A DNA stretch of 63,265 nucleotides, filler included, from 6 parts of 6 records of this genome joined end to end with filler, not necessarily neighbours in it, one strand, 5' to 3'. Positions 24,445 through 54,728 are shown, counted from the whole stretch's first letter. Numbers and translations are program-made. Notes: generated by a model not told the origin, from the letters alone.

Positions 24445-24544
24445 NNNNNNNNNNNNNNNNNNNNNNNNNNNNNNNNNNNNNNNNNNNNTTAATTAATTAA
24501 NNNNNNNNNNNNNNNNNNNNNNNNNNNNNNNNNNNNNNNNNNNN
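24445..24544. other. Artificial contig spacer
   Basis: N44-TTAATTAATTAA-N44. Confidence 0.99.
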
Positions 24545-24707
24545 TTGGTGATTTGTTTATTTGTCCATTTGTTTTTAAAATACTTTCTACAAAGTGATAT
24601 TTTGTACAAATCAACGAATAATCAAAATTTTCAAAACTACTAATATGCTGATATTCAAAATGTAATATGTGTTTTTAAATCGAGCTCACGTTAAATTTAG
24701 AAGAGCT

Positions 24708-25352
24708 TTATAGTTTTCTTAACACCATTAATCCATCACGAAAAGGAAAAATTACATTTTGCACACGATCATCTTGCTGAACCATTTCATTAAATTTTAA
24801 TACACCTTGTGTATATTCATCCAGATGGTCAGATTTTTCAATTACTTTACCACTCCATAAAACATTGTCAGCTATTATATAACCGCCGTTTTTTACAAAT
24901 GGTAAAACCAATTCATAATAATCAGGATATTGACGCTTATCTCCATCAATAAAGACGAGGTCAAACTTTTCAGTATTCTCCTTCAATAATTCTCTGGCGT
25001 CTTTGATTTGATAGTTGATCTGATTTGCTCTTGAACTTCTATCTAAATAACTTCTTGTAAATGATTCAATTTCATCATTGACATCGCAAGTATATAACAT
25101 TCCCTTTTCAGAAAGTCCTTCAGAAAGACAAATTGTAGAATAACCGGTATAAGTACCTATTTCGAAGATCCGATCAGGACAAATCATTTGGCTGATCATT
25201 GATAATACTCGACCCTGAATATGGCCGGATAGCATTCTGGGACGCAAAATTTTCAAATGAGTTTGCCTGTCAAGTTCTTGAAGTAATTCACTCTCCGGCT
25301 CACTATGAGCTTTGATATAATCATCTAACTGTTCGAAATCGTTATTGAACAT
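24708..25352 (-). CDS. Class I O-methyltransferase (Methyltransf_3 / TrmR-like)
   Basis: MLSGHIQG, EIGTYTGYS, FIDGDK, IADNVLWSG, RDGL. Confidence 0.88.
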   Translation of the reverse strand: MFNNDFEQLDDYIKAHSEPESELLQELDRQTHLKILRPRMLSGHIQGRVLSMISQMICPDRIFEIGTYTGYSTICLSEGLSEKGMLYTCDVNDEIESFTRSYLDRSSRANQINYQIKDARELLKENTEKFDLVFIDGDKRQYPDYYELVLPFVKNGGYIIADNVLWSGKVIEKSDHLDEYTQGVLKFNEMVQQDDRVQNVIFPFRDGLMVLRKL

Positions 25353-26587
25353 TACCTATAAATTAAAGTACTAAATGAATCCGGTCTAAATATTTCATTA
25401 CTTACTTCCATAACCTGTTCAGCTGAAATTTTTTCTATGCGTGCAATGGTCTCTTTTATGGTATCGGAAGTATTGAAAAACAACATATTTTTTCCCATGG
25501 CTAGCATCAAGTTACTGTAATTCTCTGACGCGATGGCAATTTGCCCCATAAGTTGATTGCGCCCTCGTGATAATTGAAGGGTGCCGGCCTTTTGCTCTCG
25601 CAGTTTTTTTAACTCCTTTTGAATACTATTCAATGATTTTTCAACTTTTGACTTATCAGTACCAAAGTAAATCCCTAATACTCCTGCATCAGAATAAGCC
25701 GTATAAAATGATTCTACATGATATACCAAACCTTTATTCTCCCTTAATTCCCTGTTAAGCCTAGTATTCATTGCAGGTCCTGCCAACATATTGGAAATCA
25801 ACCTTAAAATATAGCGATTGGGATGTGAATGATGATATGCTCCAATACCAGTAATGCAATGTGCTTGATTAGTGCGTTTTTTCATTGTCTTTTCAAAAAC
25901 CTCAGTAGAACTAACCTCTAATCGCTTTTCTTCACGAATTGATTTTGGATGTGTCTCAAAATATTGCTCTCCCCATCTCACTAATAACTCTGGCTTTATA
26001 TTTCCCACAGAAGTAATCACAATTTGATCAGTATGGTACATCCTCGATCTGAAATTGCGTATATCCTGACGTGTGATAGCTTTTACCGATTTTGGTGTTC
26101 CTAAAATATTTCGCCCAATTGGATGTTTGGCAAAAATCAATTCTTCAAAGTCATCAAAAATTAATTCAGAAGGACTATCCTTATACATTTGGATTTCTTC
26201 CAAGACCACATCTTTCTCTTTCTCTATCTCTTTCTCGGGATAAATTGCATTGAAAGTTATATCTGCTAGCAATTCTAAAGTGCGCTTATAATGTCGATTT
26301 AAAAATGATGTATAGAAACAAGTCAATTCTTTTGTTGTATATGCATCAATTTCTCCTCCCACATCTTCAATACGCCCTATAATATGAAAAGCTTTGCGGT
26401 TTTTAGTTCCTTTAAAAGCCATATGCTCAAGCAAATGGGCCATGCCATGCTCATTTTTCAATTCATCACGCGTTCCGGTATTGATAACAACACCACAATG
26501 AGCCACAGATGTACTAGATGGCAAATGTATCAGCCTCACTCCATTTGAGAACTGATGTGTAAAAAATGTCGACTTCACTAAATTCAT
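25352..26587 (-). CDS. M16 family metallopeptidase
   Basis: GMAHLLEHMAFKGT inverted zinc motif, AYTTKE, LRE.KGLVY. Confidence 0.92.
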   Translation of the reverse strand: MNLVKSTFFTHQFSNGVRLIHLPSSTSVAHCGVVINTGTRDELKNEHGMAHLLEHMAFKGTKNRKAFHIIGRIEDVGGEIDAYTTKELTCFYTSFLNRHYKRTLELLADITFNAIYPEKEIEKEKDVVLEEIQMYKDSPSELIFDDFEELIFAKHPIGRNILGTPKSVKAITRQDIRNFRSRMYHTDQIVITSVGNIKPELLVRWGEQYFETHPKSIREEKRLEVSSTEVFEKTMKKRTNQAHCITGIGAYHHSHPNRYILRLISNMLAGPAMNTRLNRELRENKGLVYHVESFYTAYSDAGVLGIYFGTDKSKVEKSLNSIQKELKKLREQKAGTLQLSRGRNQLMGQIAIASENYSNLMLAMGKNMLFFNTSDTIKETIARIEKISAEQVMEVSNEIFRPDSFSTLIYR

Positions 26588-26736
26588 GGATGCAAAATTA
26601 ATCTATTCAGTCGGTTACACAATTCAATTCAAAAAATCATCGTTAAAAAAATCACTTGAGACAAATTATTAAAAATTAATACCAAGACGCACAACCTAAT
26701 ACGGGTTAAGTTGTTATCGTTGTAGACAAATATATT

Positions 26737-27675
26737 ATGGCACAAAAAGATACCATTTCAAAATGCCTCTCATGTGGCTCTGAAAAATTAAATCATTTAA
26801 TAACCACCTCGGCTCAAATGCATGATACCGATGAAGCATTTAACTTTGTACAGTGTGGTAATTGTAGCTTAGTTATGCTTAATCCAAGGGTTAAGGAAAC
26901 TGAATTACATCAATACTATACGGATTATTATTTACCCTTTAGAGGACCCTCAGCTTGGGGAAAATATGCACATCTGGTTACGAGAAATTTAAATAAAACG
27001 GACAAAAAAAGAGTTCAAATCTCCACCAAAGCAGCCTCCCTAACTAAAAATAGCAGAATACTTGATGTTGGATGCGGCAAACCAAGCTATTTAAACCTAT
27101 TGCAAGAAAAAACAGGGGCATATTGCAAAGGAATTGATTTTACAGACGAAGGATGGAAAAACGAACCTGAAAAATATTCCAATCTAGATCTTGAAGTTGC
27201 AGAATTTCATCAATTCAATTCGGATAAACCCTTTGACCTTATAACCATGTGGCACTATCTTGAACATGATTATCATCCCGTAGAGACACTTAAACAAATG
27301 AAAAATGTTTCGCACGAAAGCACAAGAATGCTTATTGAAGTGCCAAACTTCAACTCATGGACAAGGAAAGTTCAAAAATCACATTGGGAAGGATATCATA
27401 CCCCAAGACATACTGCCATATATGAACCTAAGACAATCGCAAAGTTACTTGAAAACTCTGGATGGAAAGCTGAAAGCATTAAACCTTATGGAACCCTTGA
27501 TCCATATCCATTATATTGGATGGGACAACAAGAAAAAAAGGGAATAGATTGGAGTCAATCAATGGAGTCTAAATTTGTAGGATTTGTTGCCGGAATGATT
27601 CTAACTTCACCCATTTTTATGCTTAAGAAGTGGATCCCGACAGGTATAATGACCATTGTGGCTAAACCAGCTTAG
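26737..27675 (+). CDS. Class I SAM-dependent methyltransferase with N-terminal CxxC..CxxC
   Basis: CLSC..CGNC..NPR; LDVGCG; ITMWHYLEH; IEVPN; PRH. Confidence 0.85.
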   Translation: MAQKDTISKCLSCGSEKLNHLITTSAQMHDTDEAFNFVQCGNCSLVMLNPRVKETELHQYYTDYYLPFRGPSAWGKYAHLVTRNLNKTDKKRVQISTKAASLTKNSRILDVGCGKPSYLNLLQEKTGAYCKGIDFTDEGWKNEPEKYSNLDLEVAEFHQFNSDKPFDLITMWHYLEHDYHPVETLKQMKNVSHESTRMLIEVPNFNSWTRKVQKSHWEGYHTPRHTAIYEPKTIAKLLENSGWKAESIKPYGTLDPYPLYWMGQQEKKGIDWSQSMESKFVGFVAGMILTSPIFMLKKWIPTGIMTIVAKPA

Positions 27676-27699
27676 AAGATAAAAGTAAAAGATAAAAAA

Positions 27700-28398
27700 T
27701 TAAAAAGGTAGCAATCTCTCTCCCAGCCATGTTCCAACAGACTTATATGGCCTGAATCGTGAGAATAATTCTTCTGAATACCAGTTTAATTCACGGGTTT
27801 TCTTTACGACCTTCATATGTTCATGATTTTTATAAGCATAGTCTAGCATCGATTTCTCATCTTTCCACAAACTAAAGGTAGCCATCTGCTTAATGGGCCA
27901 CTCTCCAACGCCTTTGGCATATATTAAACCATCATATTTTTCAAGAGTTTTACTGGTTCCGGGCACATACCGCCAAAATCGAATCAAATGCTTAGTAGCA
28001 ATTGTAGCTCTGGTAATTACTACAGTATAATCACCAGGTACATCTTTCTCAGGTTTAAACGGATTTTGTTTTGACCATAAACCATGAGATTTTATTGGGT
28101 GCATGTAAACTGTAAATTGCTCAATACTTTTTTTCCGATATAATTTATGAAGGTCTCCATTGTTTAAAAAATCATCTGCTTGTTCTTCACTTTCCCACAC
28201 AGTAAGCAATGCATATGTAGAAAAATCGGCCGAAACTTTAAATCCGTTACCTGACCCTGTTCCCATTAGTTTGTAAAATTTCAAACCATCTATATTCTTT
28301 AAATACTTATGGGCAAACTGCATCATGGTAAAAGCCCAAAACTTTCTCGAAAATCCCTTATATTTCAATAAGGTCATTGTAACAATAGGTGATTGCAT
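27700..28398 (-). CDS. CrtA-like (spheroidene monooxygenase / carotenoid hydroxylase) protein
   Basis: FYKLMGTGSG.GF, HG.WS, TRA, G.GEWP..Q.TFSLW, YAY...H, EELF.RF. Confidence 0.75.
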   Translation of the reverse strand: MQSPIVTMTLLKYKGFSRKFWAFTMMQFAHKYLKNIDGLKFYKLMGTGSGNGFKVSADFSTYALLTVWESEEQADDFLNNGDLHKLYRKKSIEQFTVYMHPIKSHGLWSKQNPFKPEKDVPGDYTVVITRATIATKHLIRFWRYVPGTSKTLEKYDGLIYAKGVGEWPIKQMATFSLWKDEKSMLDYAYKNHEHMKVVKKTRELNWYSEELFSRFRPYKSVGTWLGERLLPF

Positions 28399-28654
28399 AA
28401 AAAATTATATTAAGCATTTCAATTCTTTAACAAAGGTACCATGTAAATGTTAAAATTTATCTAAAAATCTCATTTAATCTAAATTATAGCCAACAAGAAC
28501 TGTTAAAATCTATTTTTTAACAAATCATTTCAAAAAAATATATGCAGAATTCATCGATACGTTTAAAAAAATCATTATGTTTGTCACAATAAAAGAATAA
28601 AACATCCGTAATTCGTATAAATAAACTGAATATTAACACTTAAGCTTAAATGAT

Positions 28655-28978
28655 ATGAGAAAGTTACTTTTTATCCTTGCAATAGCAGGTATTTTCGCAG
28701 CATGTAGTTCAGCAAACAGCCAGGATGCTGCAGATAGTAAAGCAAAAACAGAAATGACAGAAAAGAAATCTGATTGTGGTAATGATAAGGCAGATAAAGA
28801 AGCTAAGTCAGATTGCGACACAAAAGAAGCAAAATCAGATTGTGAAACCAAAGAAGCTAAAAAATCTGATTGTGGTGGAGATAAAACTTCTAAAACAGAA
28901 GCTAAAACAGGTTGTGGAGGTAAAGATAAGAAATCAGACTGTGGTGGCACAAGTGTAGCAGGTAACGTTCCTTGCTAA
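28655..28978 (+). CDS. Small lipoprotein with Lys/Glu-rich KSDC repeats
   Basis: MRK-hydrophobic-FAAC lipobox; 5x KSDC + KTGC + terminal Cys; Bacteroidota -7 TATGTTTG at 28576-28583; terminator follows. Confidence 0.8.
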   Translation: MRKLLFILAIAGIFAACSSANSQDAADSKAKTEMTEKKSDCGNDKADKEAKSDCDTKEAKSDCETKEAKKSDCGGDKTSKTEAKTGCGGKDKKSDCGGTSVAGNVPC

Positions 28979-28995
28979 ACTATAACTTAAAAACT

Positions 28996-29033
28996 AAAAG
29001 CCGGTTCAAATTAATTGGACCGGCTTTCTTTTT
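28996..29033. terminator. Bidirectional intrinsic terminator
   Basis: AAAGCCGGTTCAA / TTGGACCGGCTTT stem with A- and T-tracts between convergent genes. Confidence 0.8.
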
Positions 29034-29045
29034 ATAATTTTCCTT

Positions 29046-31664
29046 CTATTTAATAAAAGTCAAAGCTTTATCAATGGCATTCTGAATACCATCCGGATCT
29101 TTACCTCCGGCCGATGCAAAAAATGGTTGACCACCACCGCCACCTTTCATTTCTTTGGCAGCTTCTCGTATAATATTTCCTGCATGCAAACCTTTATCTT
29201 TCACCAGGTTGTCAGAAATCATGATGCTCAAATTAGCTTTTCCTCCTACACCGGCTCCAAGCACTAAATAAAGATTCTCAACTTCGTTTTTTAACTGAAA
29301 AGCTAAATCTTTTAAGCTACCTGCGTCATCTACTTCAACTTTTGAAGCAATCACATTGATACCGTTAATCTCCTGTTTCAACTTGAGCAATTCATCTTTT
29401 AAACCCATAGCTTTTTGCCTGGACATTTGCTCCATCTCTTTTTGCAATTTAGCATTATCGGCATGAAGTTTTTCAACCGCTTTTGCCAGATTTTTTTGGT
29501 TATTGAAAAGTTCTCCAATTGCAGCTAGTTCATGCTGTTGCTGACGCACCATTTCCATAGCTTTCTTTCCTGATATGGCTTCAATGCGACGAATACCAGC
29601 AGCTATTGAGGTTTCTACAGTAATGATCAATAATCCAATTTTACCTGTAGATGATGCATGCGTACCTCCACAAAGCTCAACTGAATCTCCAAATTGAATC
29701 ACACGGACACTATCTCCGTACTTTTCACCAAACAAAGCCATAGCACCCATATTTTGCGCCTCATCCATAGCAAGATCACGATGTTCATCTAACGGAATAT
29801 CCTGTCTAATCATCTCATTCACAATATCCTCAACGGCTTCAATCTCTTCTCGTGTCATTTTTTCAAAATGCGAAAAATCAAAGCGGAAACGATCTGCTTC
29901 AACTAAAGAACCTTTTTGCTCAACATGGTCTCCCAAAACTTTGCGTAATGCATAATGCAATAAATGTGTTGCACTGTGATTGGCTTCTGTCATGCGACGT
30001 TTACTCTCACTTACTACCAAATTCATTTCCGCATCCACATTGTCTGGCATTTCTTTAGTAAAATGGACGATCAAATTATTATCTTTTTGCGTATCGAAGA
30101 TGCTAACCTTCTTTCCATCAACCTCAATATATCCTGTATCTCCTACTTGACCTCCAGACTCGGCATAAAAGGGCGTTTCCTCGAATACCAGTTGATATAA
30201 TTCTTTTCCTTTAACTTTTGCAGCTCTGTATCTTAGGAGAGATGTTTTGCATGAAGTTTTCTCATAACCCACAAAAACATCACCTTTTCCTTCTTTTAAC
30301 TCTACCCAATCCTTTGTTTCAACTTTAGAAGCGGAACGTGAGCGATCTTTCTGCTTTTTCATTTCAGCTTCAAAACCAGCCTCATCAATTGTCAGCTTGT
30401 TCTCTTTTGCAATTAAAGCAGTTAAATCTGTTGGAAAACCATAAGTATCATACAAATCAAATACAGACTTTCCATCAATCACCGTCTCGTTTGCTTTTCG
30501 CATTGCAGACATTTTTTTATCAAGCAAAGAAATACCAGTCTCCAAAGTTCGTAAGAAAGTTTGCTCCTCTTCATGTATAACTTTGGTAATAATATCTTGC
30601 TGTGCTTTTATTTCATTGAATGCATCACCCATTTCAGTCACAAGAACAGCTACCAGCTTACTTATAAAAGGTTCACTTTGATTAAGGAATGTATAAACAT
30701 ACCTTACCGCTCGGCGTAAAATACGACGAATCACATACCCTGCTTTGTTATTCGAAGGTAATTGCCCATCAGCAATAGCAAATGCAACAGCTCTTAAATG
30801 ATCAGCCACAACGCGCATTGCAATATCTATTTTTTCATCTTTCCCGTATTCCAAATTTGATAAAGCAGCTATCTTTTGAATAATAGGTTGAAATACATCT
30901 GTGTCATAATTCGAAGTTTTACCTTGCATGGCCATACAAAGACGCTCAAAGCCCATTCCTGTATCCACATGCTGTGCAGGAAGTGGTTCCAATTTACCGT
31001 TATCTCTGCGATTAAACTGCATGAATACCAGGTTCCAGATTTCAATCACTTGTGGATGATCCATATTGATCAACTCAACAGCATCTTTTTGCTTACGCTC
31101 CTCTTCACTTCTTAAATCAATATGTATTTCTGAGCACGGACCACATGGACCAGTAGCTCCCATTTCCCAGAAATTATCTTTTTTCGAACCATTTAAAATA
31201 TGTGATTCTGGTAAATGTTTATTCCAATATTTAGCAGCTTCATCATCACGCTCAAGATTATCCTCCTTATCGCCCTCAAAAACTGTAGCGTATAATCTAT
31301 CTTTCTCCAGCTTGAAAACATCAACCAGAAGTTCCCAGGCCCAATCAATAGCCTCTTTTTTGAAATAATCTCCAAAAGACCAGTTACCCAACATTTCAAA
31401 CATTGTATGATGATATGTATCGTGACCAACCTCCTCTAAATCATTATGTTTACCTGATACACGCAAACACTTTTGTGAATTAGCTACTCTTGGATACTTT
31501 ATATCTTTCTGACCCAGAAACAATTCCTTAAATTGATTCATCCCTGCATTTACAAACATCAAAGTAGGATCATTTTTTACGACCATTGGCGCAGAATCTA
31601 CGATTTCATGCTGTTTTGAATCGAAAAAATCTTTAAATGCCTGCCTTATTTCATTAGCCTTCAT
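29046..31664 (-). CDS. alaS: Alanine--tRNA ligase
   Basis: [53 protein letters not shown]. Confidence 0.98.
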
Positions 31665-31768
31665 AATTTTTATGCTGCTTTATTGATTTAGAATTAATTA
31701 ATTATTGTAATTTTAAGCAAATTCGTATAATTTTGCCTTTTTAAGTTGAGCACAAAGTAAATAAAAAA

Positions 31769-32725
31769 ATGCCAAAATCAAGATATAGGTTTAACCCCGA
31801 AACGCTTCATTACGAAAAAATTGAATTAACAACCAAAGAACGCATTGTTAATGCGCTTCCACGTGTTTTTGCCGTAATGATTATCACCACTTTTATTATT
31901 TTCTTACTATCAGATTTTATTGACACTCCTCAAGAAAAAAGACTGAAAGATGAAAATGATCAGTTGAAATTCCACTATGAACTTCTGAATAAAAAAATGC
32001 AACAAGCAGAAGATGCGCTTAAAGACATTCAGCGAAGGGATGAAAACATTTACCGAATTATTTTTGAATCTGAGCCATACGCTTTCGACAGAAATTTAGG
32101 TATTGGAGGTATCGATAAATACAAGAATATTGACCTTGAACTTATCGCAGAAACTTCGGAAAAACTTGACGCTTTAAGTCGAAGAATGGTAGCTCAATCT
32201 GAATCATACGATCAAATTATTGATATAGCCAAGAGTAAAAAGAAATTTTTCAAATCAGTTCCAGCTATCAGTCCAATTTCTGACAGGAACTTAAAGCATT
32301 TCGCATCAGGTTTTGGTTATCGTATCCATCCCATCTACAAAACCAGGAAAATGCATACCGGAATTGACCTTTCTGCTCCTCGTGGTGCTGCAGTTTATGC
32401 AACAGGTGATGGCAAAGTTGTAAAAGCTGGTAAATCATCCGGCGGATATGGAAATATGATTATTATTGACCATGGTTTTGGTTACAAAAGTCTTTATGCT
32501 CACCTTCACAATGTTGAAGTAACAAAAGGTCAGGAAATAAAACGTGGAGAAAAAATTGGCTCGGTTGGAAATACCGGTCGAAGTATTGCTCCTCACCTAC
32601 ACTATGAAGTACGTTTTCACGACAAACCGGTTGATCCGGTAAATTATTATTTTAATGATCTTACTCCGGAAGAGTATGAACAGATGATTAATATTTCATT
32701 GAACAGTGGTCAATCATTCGATTAA
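31769..32725 (+). CDS. M23 family peptidase
   Basis: HTGID, YAHL, PHLHYEV; N-terminal TM and coiled coil. Confidence 0.92.
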   Translation: MPKSRYRFNPETLHYEKIELTTKERIVNALPRVFAVMIITTFIIFLLSDFIDTPQEKRLKDENDQLKFHYELLNKKMQQAEDALKDIQRRDENIYRIIFESEPYAFDRNLGIGGIDKYKNIDLELIAETSEKLDALSRRMVAQSESYDQIIDIAKSKKKFFKSVPAISPISDRNLKHFASGFGYRIHPIYKTRKMHTGIDLSAPRGAAVYATGDGKVVKAGKSSGGYGNMIIIDHGFGYKSLYAHLHNVEVTKGQEIKRGEKIGSVGNTGRSIAPHLHYEVRFHDKPVDPVNYYFNDLTPEEYEQMINISLNSGQSFD

Positions 32726-32743
32726 CAGTTAAAGCAAACTCAC

Positions 32744-34045
32744 ATGTATAAGTATTTTTTATTAGCGATTACATTTAGTATCGCAATATCATCTATTGCG
32801 CAGGATAAAAAAGTCATTCGAACCAAAATAGATAATAAATCAGAACCGGAAACTGCCGAAGTATTATTAACACTAACAGAGCGTTTTCAACATGTAAGCT
32901 CATACACTAAAAGTGAACGGGATCATTTCGACAATTCAGTTTACTCGCCAAAATCAGTTCAGATATTAGAGAAAAAGAACAAATTCTATGTGAATAGTTT
33001 AGAAGGCTTTAGCACTGGAGTCTACAACCTAAAAGACATGAAGCGCACAAAGGTTATTTACCATCATTTTGATGCTCAAAGTGCGCATCTTTTTAAAGAT
33101 ACATTTGCGTTTGATTACAAATTTGTAACAAAAAAGAGTCAGCATAATATTTTCAAAGGCAAACCTGTAGAGGGTTGCTTCACTCACGAAGGCAAATACC
33201 TTTGGGTTACCTATTATCGCAGAAGCTTTGACCGCAATGCCATTGATCCTTCAGCCGTAGCTATTATTGATACTGATACCGATGAAATAGTGCGAGTTAT
33301 GCCCACAGGCGTTTTGCCTAAAATGATTGCCGCATCACCTGATAATAAATATGTTGCAGTAACGCATTGGGGAGACAACACAGTAGGTCTAATTAATATT
33401 GATTCAGAAGATCCGGCTGATTTCAAATATGTAAAGCATTTGATAGTTAACAAGCGGATTTATCCTGACTATTCACCCAATAAAAAAGTTGATCGCGATC
33501 ATGGATGTGGCTATTGCTTGAGAGGAACAGTTTTTACTCCTGATAGTAAATATTTATTAGTTGCCCGAATGGGTGGAGGTGGAATTGCCGTTTTTGACGT
33601 AGAACAGAAAAAATACCTCAAAACTATATTTGGAATGCATCGCAATCTACGCCACCTTGTAATTAATAATAACTACATCTATACAGGAACAAACGTGGCC
33701 GGATATATCGATAAAGTCAAACTAAATGAGTTTATCGAATTTGTTTTGAACGGTGAAGGAGAAACATTAAATACATGGGAAAGTGTTTATGTGGGTGTTG
33801 GCGTAAGAACTGTCGTAACTTCGCCTGATGGCAAATATATCTTTGGTGCCATAAATAATATGAGTAAAGTCGTTGTTGTCCGTACAAGTGATATGAAAAA
33901 AATTACAGAGATAGATGCTGATTCATTTCCAGTTGGAATGGATATAAATGACACGGGTGACAAACTGATTGTAACATCACAGGGAAAGGCAAAATATGGA
34001 GGAGGTAATTCAGTTATGGTCTTCGATGTTGAATATTTGAAATGA
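32744..34045 (+). CDS. Secreted YncE/YVTN-type beta-propeller protein
   Basis: Signal peptide; repeated SPD.KY/TPD.KY blades, PKMIAASPD, PVGMD. Confidence 0.75.
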   Translation: MYKYFLLAITFSIAISSIAQDKKVIRTKIDNKSEPETAEVLLTLTERFQHVSSYTKSERDHFDNSVYSPKSVQILEKKNKFYVNSLEGFSTGVYNLKDMKRTKVIYHHFDAQSAHLFKDTFAFDYKFVTKKSQHNIFKGKPVEGCFTHEGKYLWVTYYRRSFDRNAIDPSAVAIIDTDTDEIVRVMPTGVLPKMIAASPDNKYVAVTHWGDNTVGLINIDSEDPADFKYVKHLIVNKRIYPDYSPNKKVDRDHGCGYCLRGTVFTPDSKYLLVARMGGGGIAVFDVEQKKYLKTIFGMHRNLRHLVINNNYIYTGTNVAGYIDKVKLNEFIEFVLNGEGETLNTWESVYVGVGVRTVVTSPDGKYIFGAINNMSKVVVVRTSDMKKITEIDADSFPVGMDINDTGDKLIVTSQGKAKYGGGNSVMVFDVEYLK

Positions 34046-34063
34046 TTTCTTTAAATTTACCAC

Positions 34064-34402
34064 ATGCCATATAAAGAACCAAAAATAGAAAAGTTGTATT
34101 ATTCCATGGGTGAAGTATCTAAAATGTTTGATATCAATGCATCAACCATTCGTTACTGGGAGAAACATTTCAAGCATTTAAAACCCAAAAAGAATAAAAA
34201 AGGAAACAGACAGTTCACCAATAAAGACATTAGTGATCTTAAGCTGATTTACCATCTTTTAAAAGAGCGTGGCTTAACCATTAAAGGGGCCCAATCAAAA
34301 ATTAAAGAGAATAAAGACGATGTTGTAGACAATACTGCTATCGTAGATAGATTGCAAAAAATTCACCAGATGCTCAGTGAAATGAAGGATGATTTAGAAT
34401 AA
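34064..34402 (+). CDS. MerR-family HTH regulator
   Basis: KLYYSMGEVS..IRYWEK..L.P.KN.KG.R.F..LLKE.G.TI.GA. Confidence 0.88.
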   Translation: MPYKEPKIEKLYYSMGEVSKMFDINASTIRYWEKHFKHLKPKKNKKGNRQFTNKDISDLKLIYHLLKERGLTIKGAQSKIKENKDDVVDNTAIVDRLQKIHQMLSEMKDDLE

Positions 34403-34457
34403 ATGACAATAAAAAGGCCATTTTATAGTTAAATATTTAAGAAAATTTACAAAACTA

Positions 34458-34488
34458 TTTGATTCGAAGAAAATAAATCCTAGATTTG
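34458..34488 (+). promoter_or_regulatory. Bacteroidota housekeeping promoter (-33 TTTG / -7 TAnnTTTG)
   Basis: TTTG 34458-34461, 19-nt spacer, TAGATTTG 34481-34488. Confidence 0.8.
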
Positions 34489-34496
34489 ACACCATA

Positions 34497-34553
34497 ATGA
34501 AGCAAAACATGTACACATATTATTGGTCGTTTTTTACATTCTGCATAGAATAG
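34497..34553 (+). CDS. Attenuator leader peptide 1 (MKQNMYTYYWSFFTFCIE)
   Basis: Manual translation: 7 aromatic codons in 10; followed by antiterminator/terminator. Confidence 0.8.
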   Translation: MKQNMYTYYWSFFTFCIE

Positions 34554-34585
34554 GCGGGCAATATGTGCATTAATATAAAAATTAT

Positions 34586-34609
34586 AACCCCGCCCTAGCG
34601 GGGTTTTTT
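34586..34609 (+). terminator. Attenuator terminator 1
   Basis: AACCCCGC-ccta-GCGGGGTT-TTTT; GGCGGG (34553-34558) can pair with CCCGCC (34589-34594). Confidence 0.85.
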
Positions 34610-34622
34610 AGTTTAAAATAAT

Positions 34623-34709
34623 ATGACAAATACAGTTAAATATTCTTTCTTTTTCTTCTTCTGGTACTTTTATTATGGAGGCACCCGGGATAACTTTGTA
34701 TTTAACTGA
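34623..34709 (+). CDS. Attenuator leader peptide 2 (MTNTVKYSFFFFFWYFYYGGTRDNFVFN)
   Basis: Manual translation: 11 aromatic codons in 12. Confidence 0.85.
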   Translation: MTNTVKYSFFFFFWYFYYGGTRDNFVFN

Positions 34710-34730
34710 ACAGATTAAATAATTAGAAAC

Positions 34731-34765
34731 AAAGGCGTCCCGGATAAAAAGAGGCGCCTTTTTTT
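34731..34765 (+). terminator. Attenuator terminator 2
   Basis: AAAGGCGTC...GGCGCCTTT-TTTT; CCGGGA (34685-34690) can pair with TCCCGG (34738-34743). Confidence 0.8.
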
Positions 34766-34776
34766 ATTGAAACAAT

Positions 34777-35631
34777 ATGGTAAAAAAAGTTGCAATACAA
34801 GGTATTAGAGGTGCATTCCATGAGGAAGCTGCAATTCAGTTTTTCAAAGAAGAAATTGACATTGTGCCGGCATTAACTTTTGATGAACTCACAGAGATGG
34901 TTACTCAGGGAAATTCCCAACATGGTATAATGGCCATCGAAAACTCCATTAGTGGCACCATTCACACTAATCTCGAGCTTATCAGGAATTCTGATTTATC
35001 AGTTATTGGTGAAACTTATCTGCGTATTCAACAAAACTTTGCCATTCATCCTGAAGCAAAGATTGAAAACATACAAAAAGTAAAATCTCACTTTATGGCA
35101 TTGAACCAGTGTCGCAAATATTTTAGACAATTCCCTGAAATCGCTTTAGTTGAATCAAAAGATACGGCTTTAAGCATGAAAGAAATTGCAGACAACGTAC
35201 TTTTAAATATTGGCGCGATAGGCAGCATGACAGCCATTAAGCACTACGGATTACAATTGGTTGATGAAGGAATTGAAACCAATAAAAACAATTACACCCG
35301 ATTTGTAATTCTTTCAAATGAAAAAGCAAATAACGCTGAAATCAATAAAGCTTCTTTATCATTAGTGCTGCCTCATAAAGCAGGAAGTTTATCAAAAGCA
35401 CTTAGTTTAATCTCATTTTATGGTTCCGATTTAACAAAAATCGAATCAACACCAATTCTTGGTAAACCATGGAGCTACCGATTTTACATCGACTTCAAAT
35501 TCGACAATAAGGAAATGTTTGAAAATGTAACTACTAGTTTAAAACCTTTAGTGGAAGAGCTAAAGATTTTAGGAGTTTACAAAGATGGAATGCAATCGTT
35601 TAATCAAATACACATGAGCTATGCAAATTAA
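34777..35631 (+). CDS. pheA: Prephenate dehydratase
   Basis: AIQG..G.FH, ENSISG, SH..AL.QC, N.TRF, ACT domain LTKIES.P. Confidence 0.92.
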   Translation: MVKKVAIQGIRGAFHEEAAIQFFKEEIDIVPALTFDELTEMVTQGNSQHGIMAIENSISGTIHTNLELIRNSDLSVIGETYLRIQQNFAIHPEAKIENIQKVKSHFMALNQCRKYFRQFPEIALVESKDTALSMKEIADNVLLNIGAIGSMTAIKHYGLQLVDEGIETNKNNYTRFVILSNEKANNAEINKASLSLVLPHKAGSLSKALSLISFYGSDLTKIESTPILGKPWSYRFYIDFKFDNKEMFENVTTSLKPLVEELKILGVYKDGMQSFNQIHMSYAN

Positions 35632-36793
35632 AGCAGCAGATCGTTTAAGAAATGTGTCAGAGTATTACTTTTCACAAAAATTAGCCGAAGTAAGAAAACT
35701 CAATGAGCAAGGACACCAAATTATCAATTTGGGAATCGGAAACCCCGATTTACCGGTAAATGAAAAGGTTGTAAACAAACTAAATACTGTTTCCCGCGAC
35801 AATAAAAGCCATTATTATCAACCTTATAAAGGAATTGCAGCATTAAGAATTGCTTTTAGCAATTGGTATAAAAAAATGTATCAGGTTAATCTCGATTCAG
35901 AAAAAGAAATTTTACCATTAGCAGGATCCAAGGAAGGAATCATGCTTATTACAATGGCATTTGTCAACCCAGGGGATACTATTCTCATTCCAAACCCGGG
36001 ATATCCGGCTTATGAATCTGTTGCCAAGCTTTTGGGAGCCAAGGTTATCAAATACAATCTTGATGCTAAAAATAATTGGCAACCCAACTTTGATGAATTG
36101 AATGCTTTGGATCTAGCTAATTGCAAATTAATGTGGGTGAATTACCCTAATATGCCAACCGGAGCAAAAGCTACAAAAGAACTATTCAAACAATTAGTAA
36201 ATTTTGGTTTGGAAAATCAGATATTGGTTTGCAATGATAACCCATACAGCCATATTTTAAATGACAATCCACTGAGCATAATGAATGAGGAAAGAGCTAA
36301 AGAAACCTGCCTGGAACTAAATTCACTCAGTAAATCGCACAATATGCAAGGTTTCCGAGTAGGCATGGTTGGTGGCCACAAGGAGCTTTTACAGGCACTA
36401 ATTCAAGTAAAAAGTAATTATGACTCAGGCATGTATCTAGCGGTGCAGGAAGCAGCCATTGAAGCGCTTTCTTTAGAAAAAGAATGGTACGATAAAAACA
36501 ATCAAATCTACCAGGAAAGAAAAGATTTGTTAAAAGAGATTTTATCAAATCTGGGGCTCTCATTTGACGCTGAATCACAAGGCATGTTTGTTTGGTGCGA
36601 AGTTCCCAAAAGCTTCAAAGATGGATTCGAATACTCAGACCATTTATTAAATAAATATAGAGTATTTGCAGCTCCGGGAGGAATATTTGGCAGCAAAGGT
36701 CATCCGTATATCAGATTTTCCTTATGCGCCGCGAAAGAAGAAATCATTGAATTTGGCAATAGAATTAAAAAACTAAAGAAAATAGCAGTATGA
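35621..36793 (+). CDS. Class I/II PLP aminotransferase (probably aromatic/prephenate)
   Basis: LGIGNPD, NYPNMPTG, DNPY, SLSKSHN..G.R.G; operon context. Confidence 0.85.
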   Translation: MQIKAADRLRNVSEYYFSQKLAEVRKLNEQGHQIINLGIGNPDLPVNEKVVNKLNTVSRDNKSHYYQPYKGIAALRIAFSNWYKKMYQVNLDSEKEILPLAGSKEGIMLITMAFVNPGDTILIPNPGYPAYESVAKLLGAKVIKYNLDAKNNWQPNFDELNALDLANCKLMWVNYPNMPTGAKATKELFKQLVNFGLENQILVCNDNPYSHILNDNPLSIMNEERAKETCLELNSLSKSHNMQGFRVGMVGGHKELLQALIQVKSNYDSGMYLAVQEAAIEALSLEKEWYDKNNQIYQERKDLLKEILSNLGLSFDAESQGMFVWCEVPKSFKDGFEYSDHLLNKYRVFAAPGGIFGSKGHPYIRFSLCAAKEEIIEFGNRIKKLKKIAV

Positions 36794-37632
36794 TCATAAA
36801 TGTGATAGGTCTGGGCTTAATTGGAGGATCAATGGCCCTTGATTTGAGAAAAAGAGGATTCGCTGATAAAATTATTGGTTCGGATATAGATGAATTACAC
36901 AAAGAAGCAGCTTTGCGATTAGGTATAGTTGACGAAGTAGATGATACATTCAATGCCATTGTAAAAGCTGACCTTGTGATATTAGCAGTGCCAGTGGACA
37001 CTACATTAAATCTAATACCAAAAGTATTGGATGCTGCTGAAAACCAGATTGTAATTGATGTATGCTCCACTAAAGGTAATTTAGGAGAAAGAATTAAATA
37101 CCATCACAATCGAAAAAACTACGTGGGAACGCACCCGATGGCTGGTACTGAATTTAGCGGCCCCTGGGCTGCTATGACTGGACTATTTGATGGACGAGCA
37201 GTCATACTGAGTGACGTAGAAGATGCTTCACAAGATGCGGTTCAGACAGTCAAAGAGCTCTATGAATGCCTGAATATGAGACCATTATTCATGAATTCAT
37301 ATAACCACGATGTCCATGCAGCTTACGTGTCGCATATATCTCACCTCAGCTCCATGGCGCTGGCATTAACAGTGCTGGAGAAAGAGAAAAACGAAAAAAA
37401 TATTCTGGATTTAGCAAGTGGAGGATTTGATTCAACTGTTCGATTAGCTAAAAGTCCGGCAAGTATGTGGACTCCTATCTTCGCCCAAAACTCTGAAAAT
37501 GTAATCTCAGTTTTAGATACTTACATTGAAAAATTGAAAGATTTTAAAAAAGCTATTCAAGAAAAAGATAAACCAAAGATTTCATCACTCATTAATGATT
37601 CAAACAAAATTAAACGTGTTTTAAAAAGATAG
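36790..37632 (+). CDS. tyrA: Prephenate dehydrogenase
   Basis: GLGLIGGS, D..STK, HPMAGTE.SG, HD...A.VSH..H, RLAKS. Confidence 0.92.
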   Translation: MIINVIGLGLIGGSMALDLRKRGFADKIIGSDIDELHKEAALRLGIVDEVDDTFNAIVKADLVILAVPVDTTLNLIPKVLDAAENQIVIDVCSTKGNLGERIKYHHNRKNYVGTHPMAGTEFSGPWAAMTGLFDGRAVILSDVEDASQDAVQTVKELYECLNMRPLFMNSYNHDVHAAYVSHISHLSSMALALTVLEKEKNEKNILDLASGGFDSTVRLAKSPASMWTPIFAQNSENVISVLDTYIEKLKDFKKAIQEKDKPKISSLINDSNKIKRVLKR

Positions 37633-37636
37633 AAAA

Positions 37637-38755
37637 ATGGAAACAAAAATAAATATTCAACCAATCTCCCAATGGGGATTATCTAATACAGAAAAACCAA
37701 TCATTATTTCCGGCCCTTGCAGTGCGGAAACTGAGGAGCAAGTTATAAAAACTGCTGCGAGACTTGCTCAGGATGGCATACAAATTTTCCGTGCAGGTAT
37801 ATGGAAACCTCGTACACGACCTGGTTCTTTCGAAGGAATTGGTCAGGAAGGGCTACCATGGTTAAATCGCGTTCAAAAAGAATTCAATATGCTTGTGGCT
37901 ATAGAGGTAGCCAATGCTGCTCATGCTAAAATGGCATTAGAGGCAGGAATTGATATACTTTGGATAGGTGCACGCACCTCTGCCAATCCATTTGCGATAC
38001 AGGAAATAGCAGATGCTATTGAAGGTACAGACATTCCGGTATTAATAAAAAACCCGGTTAATCCCGATACTGATTTATGGTTGGGTGCGATTGAGCGCAT
38101 TTACAAGGCCGGAATCACAAAAATTGGTGCTATACACAGAGGTTTTAGTAGCTACGATCATACCATCTACAGAAATGTACCACAATGGGAAATTCCAATT
38201 GAGTTAAAAAGTAAATTACCATGTATTCCATTGATTTGCGATCCCAGCCATATAGCTGGCAAACGTGAACTGTTGCAAAGTATTTCGCAAAAAGCAATGG
38301 ACCTCGATTTCGACGGACTTATGATTGAGTCACACTGCGATCCGGATAATGCATGGAGTGATGCCAAACAACAAATTACCCCTGAAAGTTTGGACATAAT
38401 GCTAGAAACTCTTGTGATAAGAAAAATGCAACCCGAAGGAGTTTCATTGAACACTTTGGAAGATTTACGTTTTCGCATAGACAAACTAGACAACGACATG
38501 CTAGACATTATTGAAAAGCGTATGCAAATTGCCGAAGAAATTGGTGAGTACAAACGTCAATCAAAAATGACTATTTTACAGCAAACCCGATGGGAAGAAA
38601 TTCTCGAAAAGAATATTGCTAAAGGCAAAAAACGCAAGCTAAGCGCTAATTTCATCCTAAAAATGTTCAAAGCCATTCACCAGGAATCAATTAACAAGCA
38701 AACAGAGGTGATGAACAGGAAAGCAGAAGTAAAAGAATCAGTGAGAGTAAGTTGA
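37637..38755 (+). CDS. DAHP synthase (type I-beta) fused to C-terminal chorismate mutase
   Basis: GPCSAE, WKPRTRP, WIGAR, DPSH, WSDA.QQ; AroQ domain LR..ID.LD. Confidence 0.92.
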   Translation: METKINIQPISQWGLSNTEKPIIISGPCSAETEEQVIKTAARLAQDGIQIFRAGIWKPRTRPGSFEGIGQEGLPWLNRVQKEFNMLVAIEVANAAHAKMALEAGIDILWIGARTSANPFAIQEIADAIEGTDIPVLIKNPVNPDTDLWLGAIERIYKAGITKIGAIHRGFSSYDHTIYRNVPQWEIPIELKSKLPCIPLICDPSHIAGKRELLQSISQKAMDLDFDGLMIESHCDPDNAWSDAKQQITPESLDIMLETLVIRKMQPEGVSLNTLEDLRFRIDKLDNDMLDIIEKRMQIAEEIGEYKRQSKMTILQQTRWEEILEKNIAKGKKRKLSANFILKMFKAIHQESINKQTEVMNRKAEVKESVRVS

Positions 38756-38888
38756 ACCGAAATACGAAGTCGTCATTGAGAGAGCCCTAAATTTAGTAAT
38801 GCTGAATAAAGCTAAACTTCTCTGCTGGTGCAAATATCACTTGTGTCACCTTTCATAGTAAAGATTTCTCGCCACGAACGCCACGATA

Positions 38889-38988
38889 NNNNNNNNNNNN
38901 NNNNNNNNNNNNNNNNNNNNNNNNNNNNNNNNTTAATTAATTAANNNNNNNNNNNNNNNNNNNNNNNNNNNNNNNNNNNNNNNNNNNN
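38889..38988. other. Artificial contig spacer
   Basis: N44-TTAATTAATTAA-N44. Confidence 0.99.
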
Positions 38989-39589: not shown

Positions 39590-40465
39590 ATGGATTTTGA
39601 AGAAATTAATAATGATTTAAGAATTTTTAATGAAAATATTTCATTGATACTCAATGAGTACTTCGATTGTTCGATAGATAAAATATGTAATGATATTGAT
39701 CTGTATCATTATACATCATTAGGAAGTTTAATAAATATAATTGAAGAAAATGAGCTATGGATATCTGATCGTGAATTTCTCAACGATAAGCTTGAAGTAA
39801 ACTATGCGAGTAAGGTAATTGAAAATAGTTTCTCAAACAGCTCAGAAAAAAATAAAATGGAAAGCCTAAAGAGTGTATTCTTTCCAAATAAAGAATATTT
39901 ATTATGTATGACAACAGAGAGAGATCTTATTCATTTGTGGCAATATTATGGGACAGATGATGGCTATGCAATTAAGTTTGATTCAGAAAAGCTCATCAAC
40001 CACATCAATATAAGCAATTATAAATATGTAGCTGGGAGTATTTTATATGACCCTGAAAAACAAAAATCATTCTTAAATGAAATTATTAATAAAATAATTG
40101 AGGTTAGTCAGAAGTTTTCAGAGATAGGAGGCGAATATGCAAACTACTTTGGTCCAGAACAAGCACTTGCGGCAGCTTACTCATTAATTAAATCTGAACA
40201 TCATAACTGTGAAAAAGAATTTAGATTTTCATTTTATCAACCATCATATGGAGAAATTGAAGATTTATATGAAGAAGAATACAGATCTAAAAAAGGGATA
40301 ATTGTTCCATATTTCAAGTATTCTTTTGACAAGATTCCAATAAAGGAAATAGTAATTGGGCCAAATATTGATCATAAAATCGCAGAAAAGAGTTTAAGAT
40401 TATTTTTAGATAAGAACGGTTTTGAAGATGTGGAAATAGGATTTTCAAATATTCAGATCCGATAA
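39590..40465 (+). CDS. DUF2971 domain protein
   Basis: LYHYTS..I..N.LW....LND..E, W..YG..DGYAI.FD, K......EKEFR, EIVIGP. Confidence 0.8.
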   Translation: MDFEEINNDLRIFNENISLILNEYFDCSIDKICNDIDLYHYTSLGSLINIIEENELWISDREFLNDKLEVNYASKVIENSFSNSSEKNKMESLKSVFFPNKEYLLCMTTERDLIHLWQYYGTDDGYAIKFDSEKLINHINISNYKYVAGSILYDPEKQKSFLNEIINKIIEVSQKFSEIGGEYANYFGPEQALAAAYSLIKSEHHNCEKEFRFSFYQPSYGEIEDLYEEEYRSKKGIIVPYFKYSFDKIPIKEIVIGPNIDHKIAEKSLRLFLDKNGFEDVEIGFSNIQIR

Positions 40466-41545: not shown

Positions 41546-44500
41546 CTAGAAATGTTTCGATCTAAAATTTCTCTCTTGTTCTCCTCGTATTCGCCTTTTC
41601 CAATAGTCTATCTGCTTCGCTACATATAAACGGGCAGATAAATGTTCAGGTAAATTAAGTCTTTTTTTTAGATTCACCCAAAAATCCATGGCTCTTTCAT
41701 ATGCAGGTACAAATGAGCCATTACTAGAATAGCTATTAGGATCGAAAGTTATATTTTCAAAGACTTCTTTACTATCATTATGCTTCAGTAATTGCAAAAC
41801 AAAATTCGGCATTTCATCTCGGAAATATGATTTTATTGGTTCAAATATTAGATTCATAAGCTGATAGTCATTATGATTCTTATCGATAAAAGATTGAATG
41901 AAGACCTTTTGCCTAAATTTAATATCCTCTTTAGCCATACCGTCTGTAAACTCATTTATAGTGAAGAATGTATTAAGGAAGTGATACAAAGAAAAATATA
42001 TTTCCTTCGATTGAATGAATGAAACAACTTTGTTCATTATTTCAATATAATTCTCTAATGTCCATATTTGCGAAAAATCAGGGTGACGAGTAAACTCAGA
42101 TGGTTGTCTGAGCCTGTCTTCAGAGTAAAGAGATTCAAGATATCGGAATAAGAAATCTGGCGTATTGGTAATAAATTGCATGAAATATTCTCCATTATGA
42201 TCAATATCCTGACTAATGCTCATTTCAAAAAGCCAGATATCTTGGAGTAGTTCGATGTTTTCAAAAAGAATATCATAATAATTCTTCTTGATATCCGAAT
42301 GTGGATTAAATAAATAACCAAACCTTATACCATTCTCATTTCTACTGTCATATATTATCCTTATCATCTCCCCCAATAATCCAGCCTTATACACTTCATA
42401 TCTTGTTAAACTGTCAAAGTATATTTCATACCCTAAGAATTCTTTCTCAAATAATCCCTTAATTTCTTGAACATAAAAATCATCAATAATATCCCCAGGT
42501 AGAGAAGAAAGGAAGAAGTATTTCATGTGACTTTTGTCAGGATAGTCAGTTTGAGAAATCAAATCATAGAATTCTCGATGATGACCAGGATATAATCTTA
42601 AAAAAATATTGGGTATTGATTGTAATCCCTTTACCATCCTGTCATGAGTAGTGATTATCTTTGATATGGATTCAATAAATAAAGTGTAATCTTCGTTAAG
42701 ACAGTTGAAAAGATTTCTAATAGAATTATTTATCTCCCAGACGTTGTTTGAGTCATTCCTTTCAACTTCGAAGTTAAGGTAGTTTAAATAAGATTCAACT
42801 TGAGCTGTTCCCAATTTTCTAACCGCATCACTTTGTTCTGATTGATATTTTCTGTATATTTCTTCATTCGAGAGCCCTTCTCTTTTCATCTCTATTCGTT
42901 CAATCCTATCTGGTGAAAGAATTAAAAAGAGTTTAAAGTTATCAGTTTGTAAACTCCCTTGAATTTTTTCAATAAGTTTGTGAGAAATCTCATAGTCATT
43001 GAGTCTTGAAATGTACTTTGAGACAACCTTGCTTCCATATAGCGTGGAATATGTTATCTTCTCATCTATTATTGGAAGTAGATGGTTTGAATCAAACTTG
43101 ATTGCCTTCACGACTTCCTCTTTAGGTATATCGTAATGGTAATAAACCTTATCCACATATTGATCAAGGCAAGACAAGAAATCGATATCATTTAAAGTGC
43201 CCATAAAACCAAGAAGGATTAAACGTAGTTCCTTTAAGTGGTCTGTTAACATCAATCCAAAATTAGTACTGGTAACAGTCCTACCATGTGTGCGTGTATT
43301 ATGATGTTGGATTTGTAGAAAATGAGGTATAGCAAAAATCAAAGCTTCTTTAATGAGTTCATTCTCCGTAGCAGATTGTAATAATGTTTTAAATAATATT
43401 TTCTGTCGATAAATAGACTCATTAATATAAACTCTTTCGAAATCATAACCACTCACAATGTATTGCCCAAATTGATGTGCAGCAGAGTTGCATCTCAAAA
43501 CATATTGAATTGCCAACTGTATAGATAGCTGAAGGTAATCTTCCCCTAAATCCCCAACCTTTCTTATTAGTGTATACAAATCATTAGTTAAACCATGATA
43601 ATTTGTATCTAAATCAGATTGATCCGAATCAGCAGGTAATGAATCTATATACTTTTGAATAAACAGTAGTACTCTATCTGGGATAACAAAGTAAAACACA
43701 TCACTTAATTTTTTAAGATAGTCTACTTCTTCGCGTTGAAGATACTTATCATAAAGTTCTTCTATTGATGGCTTTATATATTCTATAACAGCTTCTCCGT
43801 CAAAGGAATTGACAATGGGATATATCGTTTCACGCATACGCTCAATATTTATCTGGAAATAGTCATGAAGTATGAGGTTAAAATCTAAGCTCTTCTTGGC
43901 AAAAAATATTCTATATAGGAAGTATGTTCCAAGAACCTGATCTGAGATTTTACATGTAGAATCTTCATGCAAGTCAACCAGCTCATGTTCATTCAGGTCA
44001 TAGATACTATCCCAAAAATCAGTTTCGGAAATACCTACCTTCGCATATATCCTATCTGGGGGATTTTTCTTTGAGATTGAGTAGAAATAAGCTACAATTG
44101 CCAGAACCTTCTCAGCTATCTCATTTCCTTCTGTGAAGACAGTATCCTTAACTTCAGAAAAATATCTATCATAGATACATGAAACATCCTTTAAATCCTC
44201 AAGGTTATTAGATTTTCTTACAACCTCAGCAGCCATGATTGCCAAACGAGCATTCCCTTGGGAAACTGTACAAATTCTTGAAACAAAATATGGATTTATT
44301 ATCCCAAAGCTATCACTTGAGATTATAGCTTCAATTTCAGTTGGCTCAAAAGTATCAATATCTATTCTCTCAAAACTGACAAGAGATTCATTTAATCTTT
44401 TAATTACCAAGTCCAAAGCATAATTCCTAACAGTAAGTATTAGCTTAATTCGTCGTTCCGAGCTATTTTCATTGATATAGGACAAAATAGTAGGAAGGTA

Positions 44501-47701: not shown

Positions 47702-47801
47702 NNNNNNNNNNNNNNNNNNNNNNNNNNNNNNNNNNNNNNNNNNNNTTAATTAATTAANNNNNNNNNNNNNNNNNNNNNNNNNNNNNNNNNNNNNNNNNNN
47801 N
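47702..47801. other. Artificial contig spacer
   Basis: N44-TTAATTAATTAA-N44. Confidence 0.99.
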
Positions 47802-49549: not shown

Positions 49550-49591
49550 TTAATAATAAATCAAACATAAATATATGTAGGAAGTGAAACT

Positions 49592-50722: not shown

Positions 50723-50735
50723 ATAAAATTTGTAA

Positions 50736-50756
50736 GGGCAGACATAGAATCTGCCC
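50736..50756. repeat. Short palindrome, REP-like
   Basis: GTAA-GGGCAGA-catagaa-TCTGCCC in an AT-rich intergenic gap. Confidence 0.4.
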
Positions 50757-50815
50757 CTAAATTTATATAGGAAATTTTATAATCCTATATTCTAATTAAC
50801 GAGGGGGTAATTGAA

Positions 50816-54628: not shown

Positions 54629-54728
54629 NNNNNNNNNNNNNNNNNNNNNNNNNNNNNNNNNNNNNNNNNNNNTTAATTAATTAANNNNNNNNNNNNNNNN
54701 NNNNNNNNNNNNNNNNNNNNNNNNNNNN
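54629..54728. other. Artificial contig spacer
   Basis: N44-TTAATTAATTAA-N44. Confidence 0.99.

Follow-up and report, generated by a model that had tools for sequence, protein, structure and literature searches.

Two putative leader-peptide attenuators in series upstream of an aromatic amino acid operon in a Salinivirgaceae-like member of the Bacteroidales

Leader-peptide attenuation is a textbook mechanism which, to our knowledge, has been studied almost wholly as single units in Proteobacteria, and work by Vitreschak et al. from 2004 is said to have predicted attenuators in the Bacteroidetes/Chlorobi. Two sensor and terminator units placed serially in one leader are familiar from tandem T-boxes and tandem riboswitches, in which read-through is multiplied and the response becomes sharper. 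The leader of the Salmonella mgtCBR operon contains two ORFs that presumably sense different signals. Tandem attenuators have been described in this leader in the available part of PMC3641672; apart from mgtCBR, our literature search on attenuators in tandem, doubled, in series or with two leaders brought up no more than the erm leaders and synthetic antisense attenuators. Within the Bacteroidota, the 5′ region of pheA-aspC3 from Flavobacterium psychrophilum (THC0290_N_0195) carries, in Table S7 of PMC9723704, the entry 'leader peptide attenuation element'. The accessible portion of that paper presents a mapped 5′ region of 170 nt with a single 27-aa F/Y/W leader and also reports that a 5′ element upstream of pheA is conserved and lacks Rfam matches. 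The same table holds a 437-nt 5′ region of ilvE, the comment on which names one leader; by our own reading, the printed sequence and dot-bracket contain three successive Ile-rich short ORFs, each with a hairpin and a T-tract. The available sections of the Bacteroides thetaiotaomicron transcriptome paper mention only short ORFs 'reminiscent of leader peptides', and the consulted part of Weinberg et al. lists a Bacteroid-trp motif.

The locus described here lies in a window, that is, the whole stretch of DNA that was analysed (63,265 nucleotides), made of six contig pieces strung together by linkers of 44 N, TTAATTAATTAA and 44 N (an all-frame stop linker), with five joins at 12253-12352, 24445-24544, 38889-38988, 47702-47801 and 54629-54728. 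The piece bearing pheA spans 24545-38888; since the window consists of joined pieces, nothing past 38888 counts as an operon neighbour, and neighbourhood across the joins is not real. The operon is composed as follows, all genes being assigned by NCBIfam:

34777..38755, plus strand: regulated operon, with NCBIfam matches for four genes
34777-35631, plus strand: prephenate dehydratase gene (pheA), a 284-aa ORF
35621-36793, plus strand: aminotransferase gene
36790-37632, plus strand: prephenate dehydrogenase gene (tyrA)
37637-38755, plus strand: gene of a DAHP synthase/chorismate mutase fusion

The NCBIfam matches agree with the gene content given for this operon in a preliminary description of the sequence, and pheA begins where that description had placed it, with its ATG at 34777, 11 nt past the second T-tract. 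The gene upstream of the leader region encodes a small MerR-type regulator (NCBIfam), and no tRNA was found beside the join 3′ of the operon. The piece after that of the operon encodes a DUF2971 protein (39590-40465) and, on the minus strand, a protein of 1251 aa that matches a STAND NTPase (41546-45301); these could be defence-island genes. Another piece carries a second aromatic cluster (47802-52117):

from 47802: EPSP synthase, of which the join leaves the C-terminal part
48464-49549: chorismate synthase
49592-50722: chorismate mutase/prephenate dehydratase fusion, the window's second prephenate dehydratase
50816-52117: shikimate dehydrogenase/kinase fusion

The leader region of the pheA operon contains a promoter motif and two units, each with a short ORF, alternative helices and a terminator:

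34458..34488, plus strand: Bacteroidota-type promoter, with TTTG at -33 (34458-61), a 19-nt spacer and TAGATTTG at -7 (34481-88)
34497..34553, plus strand: leader ORF 1, translating to MKQNMYTYYWSFFTFCIE followed by a stop
34509..34570, plus strand: protector (1:2) structure of unit 1, in which leader codons pair with 34547-34570 (minimum free energy fold, inverted repeat)
34553..34594, plus strand: antiterminator of unit 1, GGCGGG (34553-58)/CCCGCC (34589-94), an inverted repeat
34586..34609, plus strand: terminator 1, an 8-bp G+C-rich stem (34586-34593/34598-34605) with a CCUA loop and T6
34623..34709, plus strand: leader ORF 2, translating to MTNTVKYSFFFFFWYFYYGGTRDNFVFN followed by a stop
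34633..34708, plus strand: candidate protector helix of unit 2, CAGUUAAAUA (34633-42)/UAUUUAACUG (34699-708), 10 bp
34685..34743, plus strand: antiterminator of unit 2, an interrupted 21-nt inverted repeat (34685-34705/34723-34743) with the core CCGGGA/TCCCGG
34731..34765, plus strand: terminator 2, a AAAGGCGUC/GGCGCCUUU stem with a 13-nt loop and T7

These elements had been proposed earlier from the sequence and were found again at the same positions: the promoter by its motifs and their spacing, leader 1 and terminator 1 by translation, hairpin scan and folding, and leader 2, its antiterminator and terminator 2 by translation, inverted repeats and folding. The listing of inverted repeats also contains the antiterminator of unit 1 and the alternative helix CACATATT (34514)/AATATGTG (34560).

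The promoter was identified by the consensus TTTG/TAnnTTTG, which we take to be that of the Bacteroidota. Of the 13 sources examined, 12 have TAnnTTTG ahead of their first leader, with a background of 0.51 per kb on the plus strand of the window. In the mapped F. psychrophilum pheA promoter, as given in the available part of PMC9723704, transcription starts 6 nt past the G of the motif, an offset that would probably place the start in the window near 34494. In the window and in the closest related locus (L001, see below), just 8 nt lie between the -7 motif and the ATG at 34497, this distance being 18-29 nt in 10 other loci; because it is so short, the start of leader 1 is uncertain, and an alternative in-frame ATG at 34509 gives the peptide MYTYYWSFFTFCIE. 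Leader 1 may thus be near-leaderless from 34497 or may start, perhaps with greater likelihood, at 34509, and every one of its regulatory codons (Tyr at 34512, 34518 and 34521, Trp at 34524, Phe at 34530, 34533 and 34539) is downstream of both candidates. Scans for TAnnTTTG and for sigma-70-like motifs found no promoter of either type at 34560-34622 of the window, so that the separate promoter between terminator 1 and leader 2 that the preliminary description had named as counter-evidence is not recognisable there; TAnnTTTG is likewise missing between these elements in L001, L004 and L009. An octamer further downstream, TAACTTTG at 34691-34698, fits the -7 motif. Located within both leader 2 and the antiterminator arm, it is kept in L001 and has no TTTG at -33. 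It could be a weak internal promoter, and a transcript begun there would contain terminator 2 but not its antiterminator.

In unit 1, the protector structure sequesters AGGCGG (34552-57) in the predicted fold, and the antiterminator begins on the last base of the leader 1 stop codon. The antiterminator duplex (-9.0 kcal/mol, equalled in five of 300 shuffles) forms when the fold is computed with a ribosome on the Trp codon. Terminator 1 folds at -13.8 kcal/mol (z -3.6), a stability reached by one of 200 shuffles. At equilibrium and with the full terminator included, the terminator prevails at any ribosome position (P 0.78-0.95; -31.6 versus -20.7 kcal/mol); as the antiterminator has just 6 bp and the terminator is favoured at equilibrium, antitermination would have to be kinetic. 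The hairpin of terminator 1 (34586-34605) is predicted on the minus strand too, with an A/T-rich tail and no convergent gene close by.

Leader 2 starts 13 nt past the T-tract of terminator 1 and holds 11 aromatic codons in 34641-34676, and its tail GGTRDNFVFN (the 3′ third of the ORF) overlies the 5′ arm of the antiterminator. The latter sequesters the 5′ arm of terminator 2 at -20.9 kcal/mol (seven of 300 shuffles as good), and the region 34680-34772 folds with z -4.5 relative to shuffles. Terminator 2 has a 9-bp stem (34731-34739/34753-34761) including one U.G pair and an energy of -12.4 to -13.3 kcal/mol, weaker than its L001 counterpart (-12.4 versus -20.4); it escaped a simple hairpin pattern scan that allowed loops up to 8 nt, its own loop being longer. 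The alternative helix 34633-42/34699-708, also part of the preliminary description, turned out to be a valid one: it has -5.6 kcal/mol alone and belongs to the terminator-compatible conformer obtained as the minimum free energy fold with the terminator forced (-28.8 kcal/mol), is absent from the 25 inverted repeats listed and does not dominate at equilibrium. Unit 2 at full length is predicted to be bistable, the terminator-compatible conformer having -28.8 and the antiterminated one -28.1 kcal/mol. The T-tract of terminator 2 (34758-34766) is complementary over 9 nt (100%) to an A-run after the pheA start (34781-34789), a pairing that, judging by the sequence, could affect the initiation of pheA translation in read-through transcripts.

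Both units combine an aromatic-rich leader ORF, an intrinsic terminator before pheA and a mutually exclusive antiterminator, and the two complete units of leader and terminator follow each other without an intervening promoter motif (34560-34622). Such leaders are rare by chance. On both strands of the window, only five short ORFs of 8-60 aa have at least six F/W/Y in 10 codons, and leaders 1 and 2 are the richest of the five, with seven and 10 per 10 codons, respectively. Dinucleotide shuffles of 34440-34776 yielded at least one such ORF in 82 of 5000 cases and two non-overlapping ones in none of the 5000, and for the 311-nt leader in its entirety the folding energy stands at z = -2.9 relative to shuffles.

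A PheA protein scan of species-representative genomes gave 15 loci (L001-L015), the closest of which, L001, comes from a Salinivirgaceae genome bin and has 84% PheA identity, the remaining ones having 38-49%. Between the window and L001, the leader region is identical at 295 of 320 positions (92%), as compared with 78-87% for the flanking genes. Leader 1 is the same at all 57 nt, the rest of unit 1 at 65 of 70 and leader 2 at 83 of 87, two of the four changes being synonymous as read from the alignment; pheA agrees at 664 of 855 positions (78%), its third codon positions at 154 of 285 and the intergenic DNA before the promoter at 42 of 59. Since the identity of the leader region exceeds that of the flanking genes, both units appear to be more strongly constrained than the proteins.

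The preliminary description had proposed that pheA upstream regions be compared for the number of leaders and for stem covariation. The comparison was carried out, and an F/Y(/W)-rich short ORF with a hairpin and a T-tract is found ahead of pheA in 13 of the 15 loci, the exceptions being L007, with only 63 nt of upstream DNA, and L014, a spirochaete locus with no leader. A second unit is present or likely in four of the 13 (L001, L004, L009 and L011) and nine have a single unit, in this sample of 15 loci. The doubling is thus not unique to the genome of the window. As for covariation, the terminator stems are near-invariant in the alignable set and the columns uninformative, and unit 1 is found only in the window and L001, where an identical leader 1 yields no covariation signal; the energies of cognate duplexes were used instead. 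The doubled leaders other than those of the window and L001 are located as follows:

L004 (Bacteroidales bin), 3678-3737 and 3822-3893: two leaders
L009 (Vicingus bin), 3734-3781 and 3875-3922: two leaders
L011, about 3274-3380 and 3505-3677: two units, located with a covariance model from six single units

The T-tracts of the second units of L004 and L009 are interrupted. Unit 2 of L009 has a poor leader, scores 18.1 bits with the covariance model and responds weakly in the ribosome-masking model described below, in which unit B of L011 gives no clean switching. The four genes of the window's operon recur in the same order in L001, L008, L009 and L015, and the doubled loci differ in operon content, with four genes in the window, L001 and L009, three in L011 and two in L004. 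In the Bacteroidales and related loci L002-L007, L012 and L013, the DAHP synthase/chorismate mutase gene directly follows pheA, without tyrA or an aminotransferase gene between them, and the leaders nonetheless mix Tyr and Phe codons. In L011, a segment of about 130 nt is repeated (3430-3560, 3690-3820 and 3900-3990, by eye) between its two units and between the second unit and pheA, 320 nt separating the last terminator from that gene.

A recent tandem duplication as the source of the two units of the window was rejected, as they show no similarity (z -0.1; 119 of 200 shuffles as good). Unit 2 aligns weakly with the units of L010 and L003 (local alignment, z 4.4-4.7), and no alignment match to unit 1 was found among the related loci outside L001. 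With the covariance model, built from the units of L002, L003, L006, L008 and L010 and unit 1 of L004, the scores are 30.6 bits (E 0.018) for unit 1 of the window, 26.4 bits (E 0.085) for its unit 2 and 41.6 bits (E 3e-4) for unit 2 of L001. Unit 2 may represent the ancestral Bacteroidota pheA attenuator, and unit 1 would then be a lineage-specific, non-homologous addition. For L009, a local duplication is a plausible origin of the pair, as suggested by the likeness of its two terminators (z 4.7); in L004 the similarity is weak (z 2.5, 5/200), giving a weak hint of the same. The unrelated units of the window, set against the alike terminators of L009 and the repeats of L011, indicate that doubling seems to have arisen repeatedly and by several routes.

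The pairing of antiterminators with terminators was followed in 17 units, a search being made in each for the stretch with the best pairing to the terminator's 5′ arm. In 15 of them the complementary segment lies within -24 to +4 nt of the end of the leader stop, with at most 11 of 300 shuffles as good, while L003 and L006 pair with the loop and 3′ arm of the terminator instead (six and four of 300 shuffles). The 5′ arms vary by lineage (CCCCGC, GUCCCGG, AUCCCGG, GCCUUUCC, GUCCUCC) and the matching segments vary accordingly. Cognate duplexes have a mean of -12.1 kcal/mol, compared with -8.6 for non-cognate ones, a test that does not separate units sharing the GUCCCG core; for unit 1 of the window, the cognate pair is the best of 15 in both directions.

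Folding at equilibrium with the complete terminator was abandoned as non-discriminating, the terminator winning at any ribosome position for most units. In the ribosome-masking model, the transcript is folded up to the 5′ arm of the terminator and 28 nt around the ribosomal A site are masked. In unit 1, the fraction of the arm that is sequestered is 0.01 when no ribosome is present, 0.53-0.68 when it stalls anywhere between Tyr 34512 and Phe 34539 and 0.01-0.06 from Cys 34542 to the stop; in unit 2, it is 0.81-0.82 without a ribosome or with one up to Tyr 34674 and 0.05-0.27 from Gly 34677 to the stop. The units of L001 behave like those of the window. According to the model, the default of unit 1 when untranslated would be termination and that of unit 2 read-through, termination in the latter depending on a ribosome that enters the antiterminator.

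The analysis is entirely computational, and the proposals as to how the leaders are translated, how transcripts terminate and how the units respond to amino acids are drawn from sequence and folding models. A ribosome slowed at Tyr, Trp or Phe codons would leave free a segment at or before the leader stop, which could pair with the 5′ arm of the terminator and allow RNA polymerase to continue; a ribosome reaching the end of the leader would cover or unwind that segment, the terminator would form and the transcript would end. In unit 1, a protector helix would impose termination in the absence of translation, and in unit 2 the ribosome itself would dismantle the antiterminator, an untranslated leader giving read-through. 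As there is no promoter between the units, polymerase would have to pass both terminators and read-through should multiply, which would lower basal expression and steepen the response to any aromatic shortage. Each unit would act as an OR over Phe, Tyr and Trp, applied twice. The anatomy, the conservation and the masking model all point to what the preliminary description had claimed, two complete leader-peptide attenuators in series with no recognisable promoter between them, and we consider it likely that this Salinivirgaceae-like member of the Bacteroidales has two classical ribosome-dependent attenuators behind one promoter, with multiplied read-through and an OR over the three amino acids.

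The same description had divided the leaders into a Tyr/Trp-first and a Phe-first one and had offered either an AND-like or a signal-sharpening gate. The division did not hold, given that codons for Tyr, Trp and Phe occur in both leaders and all of them antiterminate in the model, and of the two gates sharpening fits better. An amino-acid-specific AND gate, with unit 1 as the sensor for Tyr and Trp, unit 2 as that for Phe and expression only when both classes are short, would suit the opening of the leader 1 run (Tyr, Tyr, Tyr, Trp), the five-Phe run of leader 2 and an operon that includes both branch enzymes and the shared DAHP synthase; it is nevertheless unlikely, since leader 1 also has three Phe codons, the aromatic run of leader 2 includes four Tyr and one Trp, every aromatic position antiterminates in the model (0.53-0.68 in unit 1, 0.81-0.82 in unit 2) and single-unit relatives combine Phe and Tyr within one leader. 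With Tyr, Trp and Phe codons at model-effective positions in both leaders, a shortage of any one amino acid should open both gates, and the pair would then more probably serve to reduce leak and sharpen the response than act as an AND gate.

The number of working units may also be questioned, as nine of the 13 relatives have a single one, terminator 2 of the window is weakened relative to that of L001 and the T-tracts are poor in the second units of L004 and L009, all of which would be expected if only one unit worked and the other were a remnant, idle or in decay, or had arisen by accident in a T-rich spacer. We regard this as improbable, however, because both units surpass the coding genes in conservation, carry at the leader stop an antiterminator that matches their terminator and show the expected dependence on ribosome position in the model. 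Least probable of all is that unit 1 is an independent small gene for a small RNA or protein, with the operon transcribed from a start upstream of leader 2: a promoter, a short ORF and a strong terminator predicted on both strands could indeed make up a self-contained transcript, but the ATG of leader 2 follows the T-tract after just 13 nt, 34560-34622 holds no promoter motif, the ORF consists of a run of the amino acids of this very pathway and its stop abuts a segment complementary to its own terminator.

Beyond two serial attenuators with multiplied read-through, it is conceivable, if rather doubtful, that multiplied attenuators are a recurrent, selected habit of Bacteroidota amino-acid operons and that the Salinivirgaceae pair forms a fail-safe, ultrasensitive gate with opposite failure modes. 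This broader reading is based on the doubling in four sampled pheA lineages and on the three-fold arrangement that we read in the printed part of the F. psychrophilum ilvE region. Translation starts in the Bacteroidota are not guided by a Shine-Dalgarno sequence, which would suit the fail-safe gate.

If read-through multiplies, the pair would represent a natural equivalent of tandem riboswitches and T-boxes that works through the ribosome and would provide a low leak and a steep response without a protein regulator. For annotation, the locus adds two unannotated small ORFs, two terminators and a promoter, in a phylum that has no matching Rfam family, and it cautions that a terminator just upstream of a biosynthetic gene need not be an operon boundary. 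No printed tandem case for the aromatic pathway was found in the literature searched, in keeping with what the preliminary description had supposed. A single pheA attenuator is already known in the Bacteroidota, and a tandem of two unrelated units with differing default states, as predicted here from sequence and modelling, would be new.

The Bacteroid-trp motif gave no match in the window leader when searched with Rfam. At a permissive threshold, Trp_leader (RF00513) gave 27.9 bits (gathering 41) and Phe_leader (RF01859) 25.2 and 19.9 bits (gathering 55), all below threshold and aligned mainly to the terminator. The locus resembles the enterobacterial pheL-pheA (RF01859) and trp (RF00513) leaders in its end-product codons and in the alternation of protector, antiterminator and terminator, and unit 1 is predicted to reproduce their full four-segment logic; the enterobacterial leaders, however, are single units for one amino acid each, and the window, below both gathering thresholds, is not a member of either family. 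With the mgtCBR leader of Salmonella, as described in the accessible part of PMC3641672, it shares one long leader with two short ORFs, translation of which is expected to choose between stem-loops, although that operon serves virulence and Mg2+ transport and not amino-acid synthesis. Tandem T-boxes and riboswitches sense by an RNA that binds tRNA or a metabolite, whereas the sensor proposed here is the translating ribosome. The F. psychrophilum ilvE region, going by its printed part, would also be a case of serial leader-peptide attenuators in the same phylum, but it belongs to the branched-chain pathway and its units 2 and 3 are near-identical copies. F. psychrophilum pheA-aspC3, to the extent presented in the available portion of PMC9723704, has in common with the window the phylum, the first gene, one promoter of the TAnnTTTG type and a leader followed by a terminator, and its leader tail (GRD plus about six residues) resembles that of leader 2 by eye; it has a single unit in 170 nt, whereas the window has two in about 280 nt, of which unit 1 is without a counterpart there.
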